Shown piece after piece: positions 37,543 to 39,896 of a stretch of 64,000 bases of DNA. The translations under genes were made by a program, and so were the position numbers. The notes beneath the pieces were generated by a model. The model saw only the letters and a program-made list of their open reading frames with translations. It did not search any database and had not been told where the DNA came from. Positions within the stretch are counted from its first letter, which is position 1; the number at the start of each line of letters is the position of its first letter. The stretch is taken from the sequence record PV287714.1. The stretch is one strand, 5' to 3'. This DNA comes from Escherichia phage HMD-9.

Positions 37543-37854
37543 TTACACCGCCATTTTTCCTTTAATAGGAGGGTGTGATTCGTAACCTTTAAGAACGAAA
37601 TCTTTAGGCCTGAGTTTAAGAATGTATTCCAATTGTTCTTTAGTAGAAAGATAACGGAATTTATAAGGCAATCCGCCTATTACCAGTTCACAAAGCTCTT
37701 TAGGTTCACGACGCAAAATTTCTTTACATTGTTCTACGTGATTCATATAGATATGAGTATTACCGCCAGAAAATATCAAATCTCCTGGAATAAGATTACA
37801 CATCTTAGCTACAATATGAACCAACGCAGCATATGATGCAATGTTGAATGGAAG
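37543..37854 (-). CDS. td: thymidylate synthase, exon 2
   Basis: Encodes LPFNIASYAALVH...; joins exon 1 to give 286 aa; the track's leading M is the intron 3' ATG. Confidence 0.93.
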   Translation of the reverse strand, partial: LPFNIASYAALVHIVAKMCNLIPGDLIFSGGNTHIYMNHVEQCKEILRREPKELCELVIGGLPYKFRYLSTKEQLEYILKLRPKDFVLKGYESHPPIKGKMAV

Positions 37855-38108
37855 CATTATGTTCAGATAAGGTCGTTAATCTTATCCCGGAATTATATCC
37901 AGCTGCATGTCACCATACAGATCAGACTATATCTCCATCTTGATGAAGCAAGATGTCTATCGTTTCGAGTCACTTGACCCTACTCCCCAAAGGGATAGTC
38001 GTTAGGCATTTAGTTCAAAAGAACATTTAGCACGGGATTGTCTACTAGAGAGGTTCCCCGTTTAGATAGATTACAAGTATAAGTCACCTTATACTCAGGC
38101 CTCAATTA
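37855..38108 (-). ncRNA. group I self-splicing intron in td, ORF-less (no I-TevI)
   Basis: 5' end TAATTGAGGCCTGAGTATAAGGTGACTTATAC..., 3' end ...CTGAACATAATG; exon 1 ends in U, intron ends in G; 254 nt, no ORF. Confidence 0.9.
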
Positions 38109-38657
38109 ACCCAAGAAAACATCTACACTTCTTTGGTACCATTGTAAATCAAGATAACCATTACGCACATTAAACTGATAGAACATATGACAGGGCGGTA
38201 ATGCCATTTGATTGATTTCAGCTGGATTCCATGCTGAAACGATTTGACGTCGATCAGTTGGTAATTTTTTAATACGATCAATAGTTTCAACTAATTGATC
38301 CACACCACCGAAATCACGCCATTGTTTACCGTATATAGGACCAAGTTCACCACTATGATATCCTAGGTCTTTAGCCTGGTTTTCATAGTTATCGTCCCAA
38401 ATAGTTTTACCTTGAATAAGACTACCATGAGTGCGAAGACGTAAATCATTAACATTGGTAGAACCGGAAATAAACCATAGAAGCTCAGCAATGCAAGCTT
38501 TCCAAGCGAGCTTCTTAGTCGTTACTGCAGGAAAACCTTTAGTTAAATCCCAGCGTAATTTAGTACCGAACAAAGCAATTGTTCCTGTGCCTGTTCGGTC
38601 ATCGGTTTCATAGCCATTTTCAAAAATGTCTTTAATTAAATCTTGGTATTGTTTCAT
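38109..38657 (-). CDS. td: thymidylate synthase, exon 1
   Basis: 183 codons ending QRSVDVFLG; the track's stop is the first 3 nt of the intron. Confidence 0.93.
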
Positions 38658-38676
38658 TTAGTACCTTATATAAATT

Positions 38677-38705
38677 ATAATACATTTTATGAAGCTAATA
38701 ATCAA
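38677..38705 (-). promoter_or_regulatory. sigma70-like promoter upstream of td
   Basis: Minus strand TTGATT - 17 nt - TG-TATTAT, about 20 nt upstream of td ATG. Confidence 0.4.
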
Positions 38706-39061
38706 TACGGTTTAGCATCAAATTTTCTTTCAATTTCAGGCGTAAAATACAATTCTTTACCACGCTTGGAAAAGCGACCAATAATATGATAATTATTCTC
38801 ATCAAACGTGATATTGCCGATATCCATAGCTTTCAACCAAATATCGATATTTCTGTCAAGCTTTATATCAAAATTCCAATACGGAGAATTATTACCAAAA
38901 ATACTACAAGCGGATTCAGTGAAACAACTGCTATAAATCTTGTCTTTAGGAACTACTAATTGATAGACGCCTTTAATAAACTGAGGACCCTGCCATTTTG
39001 GTTGTTTCGCGTCTTTTTCTAATAGAATAGGGTAATAATTAAAGTTCATATTTTCCGCCAC
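38702..39061 (-). CDS. hypothetical protein between td and frd (lineage-specific candidate)
   Basis: 115-119 aa; probable ATG at 39049; no recognisable family; frd and td are adjacent in T4 as I recall. Confidence 0.65.
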   Translation of the reverse strand: MAENMNFNYYPILLEKDAKQPKWQGPQFIKGVYQLVVPKDKIYSSCFTESACSIFGNNSPYWNFDIKLDRNIDIWLKAMDIGNITFDENNYHIIGRFSKRGKELYFTPEIERKFDAKPY

Positions 39062-39069
39062 GTGTTATT

Positions 39070-39896
<827 letters not shown>

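Follow-up and report, generated by a model that had tools for sequence, protein, structure and literature searches.

The stretch analysed here, 64 kb of Escherichia phage HMD-9 (record PV287714.1; called the window below), is a segment of a Tequatrovirus (T4-like) genome with its genes on the minus strand. An earlier reading made from the letters of this DNA alone (the sequence-only reading) had placed an open reading frame (ORF) of 115-119 amino acids (aa) between frd and td, and such an ORF is present at 38702..39061 (-). This ORF, named ORF A, is a real gene and very probably an old, widely inherited and expressed one. The explanation to which we lean, if only slightly, is that ORF A belongs to the T-even nucleotide-precursor operon as a functional but non-essential accessory gene, and is the sole survivor here of a frd-A-B-o68-td cassette. 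It is T4 that is atypical at the frd/td junction, where most relatives have one to three small, translationally coupled genes.

A homologue of ORF A is found by tblastn in 554 phage records. About 362 of them have at least 90% amino-acid identity, including T2, RB3, RB27, RB32, PP01 and wV7, and about 192 have less than 60%; a peptide spanning the end of Frd and the start of ORF A likewise recovers 362 records. The position is conserved as well as the sequence. An ORF A family gene lies after frd and before td in the window and in all the comparison loci bearing one (24/24), and the homologue comes directly after frd in each of the 14 IMG/VR loci recovered by the family pattern (14/14). Examples are Kosakonia phage 305 (Kanagawavirus), Klebsiella phage JD18 (Jiaodavirus), Erwinia phage Cronus and Shigella phage Shf125875 (Mosigvirus), where it comes directly 3' of frd and before td. 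More generally, T4-like phages of Klebsiella, Kosakonia, Edwardsiella, Citrobacter, Erwinia and Salmonella carry homologues directly after frd that are 25-46% identical. In the relatives outside Tequatrovirus and Mosigvirus, the start of A overlaps the stop of frd and A overlaps the next gene (td or a second small gene, B, described below); compared with the window, these relatives are 43-54% identical for frd, 24-46% for ORF A and 77-86% for td exon 1. The Mosigvirus copy of Shf125875 (L008 1660-2007) is 93% identical to the Tequatrovirus ORF A.

The sequence-only reading had taken the ORF for an inserted, lineage-specific cargo. This idea does not survive the count of about 362 records with at least 90% identity and the homologues lying directly after frd across T4-like phages: the same ORF occupies the same position in most relatives, T4 being the exception. 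ORF A is already known, as a hypothetical protein in T2 and in hundreds of public genomes, with a PHROG family, thus its presence here is ordinary. Optional genes flanking td are reportedly mentioned in the abstract of Sandegren and Sjoberg 2004 (JBC).

Three results lead to the conclusion that ORF A is a real gene: (i) more than 550 homologues at the locus; (ii) its ratio of non-synonymous to synonymous change (dN/dS); (iii) a confident AlphaFold2 model. The dN/dS of ORF A between the window and eight other ORF-bearing loci is 0.011-0.059 (synonymous divergence 0.24-0.70, non-synonymous 0.004-0.036). With the 63%-identical outgroup copy of L023 it is 0.075, synonymous change being then saturating. 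The corresponding ratios in these genomes are higher: 0.14-0.19 (frd) and 0.08-0.10 (td exon 1). By this comparison, ORF A is under very strong purifying selection, tighter than frd. The AlphaFold2 model, obtained with a 19-sequence alignment, has a predicted local distance difference test score (pLDDT) of 91 and a predicted template modelling score (pTM) of 0.84.

The 115-aa product starts with MNFNYYPILLEKDAKQPKWQGPQF... (also given as MNFNYYPILLEKD...), from the internal ATG at 39049. This ATG is the likelier start than the GTG at 39061, since homologues begin with MNFNYY and a GGCGGA is found 6-7 nucleotides (nt) upstream. No paralogue of ORF A was found elsewhere in the window. The 2003 GenBank record of T2 (AY310907.2, gene 32-frd-td; L006 3505-3917) leaves the 413-bp frd-td gap unannotated and contains an intact 115-aa ORF inside it.

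Many loci carry the second gene, B, after A. The profiles of A and B match each other by hhalign with a probability of 99.35% (E = 6e-21), and a Kosakonia copy of B falls in the same family as ORF A (PHROG 1928) in the PHROG scan. Tandem A+B pairs, which many other genera have, are present in L004 (2498-3176), L013-L015 and L017-L024, while the order is reversed, i.e., B-A, in Erwinia phage Cronus (L016 2559-3297). B has an insertion of 15-20 residues (PTIxxFKRNP) in the loop following the QKKW motif. The closest relatives outside Tequatrovirus are the metagenomic contigs L023 and L024, with A copies 63-66% identical. The order in L023 is frd-A-B-o68-td, and three of its four junctions (frd/A, B/o68 and o68/td) are ATGA stop/start overlaps; L024 matches this order and ends within B. 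The last gene of this series, o68, is a 68-69-aa ORF (PHROG 9550), found for example at:

L007 1654-1860 (-), in Escherichia phage D5505
L023 4670-4879
L013 3673-3879

At the frd/td junction, o68 is present in about 135 Tequatrovirus records (at least 90% identity), where it overlaps both neighbours. Copies of o68 about 42% identical are also found in unrelated 150-kb coliphages, e.g., Schickermooser and ESCO25.

The comparison of frd-td junctions thus distinguishes at least three alleles in Tequatrovirus: A only (T2 type, including the window), o68 only (D5505 type) and nothing (T4 type). In a sample of 28 matches, evenly spaced among the full-length matches to the T4 junction flanks, 19 are of the A type, 5 of the o68 type, 3 of the T4 type and 1 of the Mosigvirus A type; a 54-nt junction probe is uninformative for counting the T4 type, since ORF-bearing genomes, through the flanking repeat, also match it with each half. 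For T4 itself the sequence-only reading had described frd and td as adjacent and overlapping, which the coordinates of NC_000866 (frd end 145109, td start 145112) and the alignment bear out: the two genes form an ATGA overlap with no ORF between them. The junction of RB69 is arranged in the same way.

The simplest reading of these arrangements is an old cassette frd-A-B-o68-td that would have been trimmed differently in each lineage, T4 and RB69 being fully trimmed. The T4-type junction is best explained by a deletion between cassette junctions; since three of the four outgroup junctions are ATGA overlaps, such a deletion would keep td translationally coupled to frd. In the window, a 7-codon stretch in the frame of B (MLNRIDY*) is found at the ORF A stop. 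Its ATG and first five codons are inside the conserved 3' end of A, thus it hints only weakly at the trimming of a larger cassette in place. That the spacer before td is a vestige of B is likewise doubtful: similarity fades after the stop, and the B-frame start and five codons are those within the A 3' end.

The features of the locus in the window are, following the minus strand:

39070..39651 (-): frd (dihydrofolate reductase), 193 aa, from the ORF list; its product shares 94.8% identity with T4 Frd (tblastn)
39103..39137 (-): homologue of the T4 promoter Ptd, within the 3' end of frd; T4/window alignment identical across both elements
39065..39075 (-): left direct-repeat copy AAATGAAATAA, including the frd stop TGA (39070-39072) and a 2-codon mini-ORF ATGAAATAA
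38702..39061 (-): ORF A as 119 aa, from the alternative GTG at 39061 (ORF list)
38702..39049 (-): ORF A as 115 aa, from the ATG; PHROG 1928; modelled as a beta-rich domain with one helix
38658..38701 (-): spacer of 44 nt from the ORF A stop to the td ATG, with a Shine-Dalgarno AAGG at 38664-38667
spacer elements (-): TTGATT 38700-38705, TATTAT 38677-38682, TATAAT 38674-38679 and the MotA-box-like ATTAGCTTCA 38690-38699
38649..38659 (-): right direct-repeat copy AAATGAAACAA, at the td start
38109..38657 (-): td exon 1, 183 codons (ORF list, comparison loci)
37855..38108 (-): td group I intron, 254 nt, without I-TevI ORF (Rfam Intron_gpI; ends set by comparison with the T4 exons)
37543..37854 (-): td exon 2, 103 codons and stop

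An 11-bp direct repeat, AAATGAAA(T/C)AA, lies on either side of the segment containing ORF A. In T4 and RB69 there is one copy only, and this copy is the frd/td overlap itself. Whereas 0.8 occurrences of the 11-mer would be expected in the window, there are 5, of which two flank ORF A. The left boundary ATGAAATAA differs by one base from the td start ATGAAACAA, and T4 and RB69 have exactly the same junction, GTATAAATGAAACAATACCAA, although frd just upstream differs. The identity of the repeat copies is partly forced by the frd stop, the td start and the ATGA-overlap design of the cassette. Moreover, the repeat allows both directions: a deletion between copies leads to the T4 state, and an insertion duplicating the td start leads to the T2 state. 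The Mosigvirus junctions differ from each other, RB69 (L025 5384-5387) having the bare T4-type junction and Shf125875 carrying ORF A; this difference, together with the identical bare junction, points to an exchange of junction alleles between genera.

Regarding expression, the start of the mapped T4 middle promoter Ptd is at T4 145142 (Table 1, PMC2988021), and in middle promoters the spacing between the MotA box and a TAnnnT -10 is 12 +/- 1 bp (PMC2988021). The Ptd start is located in T4 30 nt upstream of the td ATG, inside the 3' end of frd. The homologue in the window consists of the MotA-box-like AAATGGTTGA at 39128-39137, a 12-nt gap and the -10 TAAAAT at 39110-39115. Box, gap and -10 are identical in T4 and in the window and have, by sequence, the layout of a MotA-dependent middle promoter. 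The equivalent of the T4 start is at 39103, i.e., 54 nt upstream of the ORF A ATG. This conserved Ptd homologue is most likely the promoter serving ORF A and, since ORF A is the first gene downstream of it, ORF A would be expressed before replication, together with td.

The sequence-only reading had instead credited the ORF with a promoter of its own, a near-consensus sigma-70-type element in front of td. Its two hexamers are present, as a TTGATT-17-TATTAT pair at 38705..38677 (-), but the match to the sigma-70 consensus is 9/12 only, there is no TGn (the TG abuts the -10 hexamer and is not one base upstream, hence the scan scores it as "no") and the 3.7-kb region contains 22 such sites against 15.3 +/- 3.8 in shuffles. 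The element is thus neither near-consensus nor clearly above chance. T4 early promoters, for comparison, have excellent UP/-35/TGn/-10 matches (PMC2988021). Furthermore, the pair is downstream of ORF A and would therefore serve td, not ORF A; the TTGA of the -35-like hexamer overlaps the last codon and the TGA stop of ORF A. The spacing is 18 nt (one extra T) in 7 of the 8 other ORF-bearing loci, and a 31-nt stretch is missing in the eighth, the Mosigvirus copy. The promoter-like stretch is kept in the ORF-bearing Tequatrovirus loci; the distant relatives have overlapping genes and no spacer. Another way to read the spacer is the MotA-box-like ATTAGCTTCA followed after 10 nt by a perfect TATAAT, one base short of the 12 +/- 1 rule. 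A promoter in the spacer before td is possible on this sequence. The GenBank record of phage Lutter annotates one there.

PHROG 1928 is the only family matched by ORF A (E = 7.1e-36, residues 8-115 against profile positions 2-125 of 126). The Pfam, NCBIfam and PADLOC scans give no match for ORF A, its paralogue B or o68, in agreement with the sequence-only reading, which had recognised no motif in the ORF. A profile search of the sequences of the Protein Data Bank (PDB) returns spurious matches only (dynein, E = 0.01). An exhaustive phmmer search of 1.84 billion representatives gives 16 genuine clusters at 50% identity, and the profile search for the family gives 27 proteins. All these members are single-domain proteins of 99-148 aa from contigs of T4-like phages, without domain fusions. 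A 488-aa repeat protein (P0016) was rejected as a false positive. A 316-aa fusion of Frd and ORF A (P0040, WP_146639004.1, labelled Salmonella enterica) with the linker NEITRGGN occurs in 2 contigs only, and apparently arises via length changes in the runs of A around the frd stop. No in-frame Frd-ORF A fusion is present in the 362 GenBank phage records (0/362), thus no weight is given to it: it was treated as rare or as a frameshift artefact, and rejected as evidence of a functional link.

Six residues are invariant in the ORF A family, Q16, W19, G27, G91, K95 and G97, and N79, F93 and F102 are nearly invariant. When B is included, W19, G27, G91, K95 and G97 are invariant and L9, Q16, Y29 and F93 nearly so. 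The motifs are retained down to 25% identity. There is no conserved acidic or histidine residue in the family alignment, which argues against an enzyme. According to the model the protein is stably folded, with the order beta1-beta2-beta3-alpha-beta4-beta5. In both structure searches the top-ranking matches are predominantly OB-fold proteins, though no structural neighbour is significant. With less confidence, the model suggests a small OB-fold-like beta-barrel, its conserved residues being placed in the beta1-beta2 loop and in the C-terminal beta4-beta5 hairpin. In the OB fold, this loop and this hairpin form the usual ligand-binding face.

The explanation towards which we lean, the surviving accessory gene, could be detailed as follows. 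An ancestral cassette of small genes, frd-A-B-o68-td, would have been reduced in this phage to A alone. Transcription before replication would come from read-through of frd and from the MotA-dependent Ptd homologue, leading to an OB-like, non-catalytic protein co-expressed with dihydrofolate reductase (DHFR) and thymidylate synthase. This protein may bind single-stranded nucleic acid, or a partner in the machinery of deoxynucleotide (dNTP) synthesis or replication. ORF A would be dispensable, yet strongly selected where present. A non-catalytic binder is fairly probable; nucleic acid as its ligand is a tentative proposal, more doubtful than not. Distinctly improbable is the further idea that A and B are a novel OB-like part of the T-even dNTP-synthesis and replication apparatus, overlooked because T4 deleted the cassette; for example, the protein could be an adaptor binding DHFR and/or thymidylate synthase, or tethering them to single-stranded DNA (ssDNA) or to gp32.

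Four points weigh against the surviving-gene explanation: (i) T4, RB69 and the D5505-type phages have no ORF A, thus any role in dNTP synthesis is dispensable; (ii) the identical junction of T4 and RB69 and the look of a decayed td start at the left boundary would fit a re-insertion as well as a retention; (iii) the placement of the conserved residues is read from the secondary-structure string, without the coordinates of the model; (iv) no mention of ORF A was found in full-text literature searches.

Two other explanations are unlikely without being negligible. In the main rival, ORF A may be an anti-defence or host-takeover factor, i.e., a small early protein that neutralises host immunity or a host enzyme and is kept or lost according to the hosts met. 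Close Tequatrovirus relatives do differ at the junction (A, o68 or nothing), and such presence/absence among close relatives is what accessory counter-defence genes typically show; the protein is also small, non-enzymatic, likely made before replication and without known fold neighbour. On the contrary, its position next to frd is fixed in at least four named genera and in other T4-like phages, and the gene is translationally coupled at the locus, not located in a hypervariable region. Counter-defence genes usually diversify, whereas the dN/dS of ORF A within Tequatrovirus is 0.01-0.06. PADLOC gives no match, though its library is made of defence, not anti-defence, proteins.

In the second of these explanations, with an equally small probability, the Tequatrovirus copy would be a secondary insertion: T4, T2 and RB69 would descend from a phage with a bare junction, into which A later recombined from another T4-like phage, duplicating the td start. 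Of the inserted-cargo idea of the sequence-only reading, this is what comes nearest to surviving. The flanking 11-bp repeat (5 in the window against 0.8 expected) agrees with this, as does the left copy, one base different from the td start. So does the bare junction common to T4 and RB69 despite their differing upstream frd. Compared with L023, moreover, A is 63% identical but frd 48% only. However, every outgroup examined has A at this position, thus an insertion does not hold for the family as a whole. The common AAATGA(A) follows largely from the frd stop and the ATGA-overlap design, no donor closer than 66% identity was found, and the MLNRIDY* stretch in the B frame is a weak hint of trimming in place. 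In any case, a re-introduction of A into an ORF-less junction does not rescue the lineage-specific claim.

A free-standing homing endonuclease, or its remnant, is very improbable. It would account for the presence or absence of ORF A among closely related genomes and for its place beside td, the bearer of a mobile intron, and it has a GenBank label in its favour, the records of the BASEL phages KarlGJung and AndreasVesalius calling ORF A a "putative homing endonuclease". But Pfam finds no GIY-YIG, HNH, LAGLIDADG, His-Cys, PD-(D/E)XK or other nuclease in 19 members, and only Q, W, G, G, K and G are invariant, none of them acidic or histidine. The label thus loses its support. The protein has 115 aa and no separate DNA-binding domain. 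Homing endonuclease genes typically decay rapidly, whereas this synteny is stable across genera and the purifying selection is strong. A chance or decaying functionless ORF, which T4, fully viable without the gene, and the unannotated T2 record of 2003 might suggest, is effectively refuted by the dN/dS of 0.01-0.06, the synonymous saturation against L023, the motifs kept to 25% identity and the confident structure model.

The gene order around the locus is gene 32, frd.3, frd.2, frd.1, an 81-aa ORF, frd, ORF A and td exon 1, followed by the group I intron, td exon 2, nrdA.2, nrdA.1 and nrdA. The td intron scores 72.7 bits against the Rfam covariance model Intron_gpI (gathering score 50, E = 5e-18). 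This short form, or a version about 66 nt longer, is present in roughly 36 phage records; the td intron of T4 has 1016 nt. The 81-aa ORF (PHROG 3183, function unknown), at 39651-39896 (-) between frd and frd.1, has one base in common with the frd start codon. The corresponding frd/frd.1 interval of T4 is a 72-nt gap only, and the ORF is carried by KarlGJung, Lutter and D5505.

These results have some consequences for the group. T4, the reference for these phages as a whole, is atypical at the frd/td junction, and the promoter named Ptd in T4 is likely, by inference, the promoter of ORF A in most T-even phages. The gene is more constrained than frd, yet it is without known function or significant structural neighbour. 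Were the protein to belong to the dNTP machinery or to act in counter-defence, it would make a cheap and tractable object of study, as T2 lends itself to a direct comparison with and without ORF A. The novelty is confined to the context worked out here, a modest lead and not a discovery.

Comparison with known systems leads to the following picture. The closest case is that of the PHROG 1928 or RB32ORF229c-type proteins of T2, RB3, RB27 and RB32, which are the same gene at the same frd-td position; the protein is 98-99% identical to the T2 and RB27 copies, and the sole difference of these loci from the window is the spacer before td, 1 nt shorter here. With respect to the promoter Ptd, the first gene downstream is td in T4, whereas it is ORF A in the window and in every A-type phage, td lying 446 nt further on in the window. 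The seg and mob genes of T4 resemble ORF A in being optional between conserved genes among close relatives, beside an intron-bearing gene; unlike them, ORF A has no nuclease domain, is conserved in place and translationally coupled, and is under strong purifying selection. Finally, the OB-fold domains (RPA, SSB, Teb1, Cdc13, S1 and the N-domain of RecO) are small beta-barrel-like domains with the secondary-structure order of the ORF A model, and the likeness would extend to the conserved aromatic and basic residues that the model places in the L12 loop and in the beta4-beta5 hairpin.
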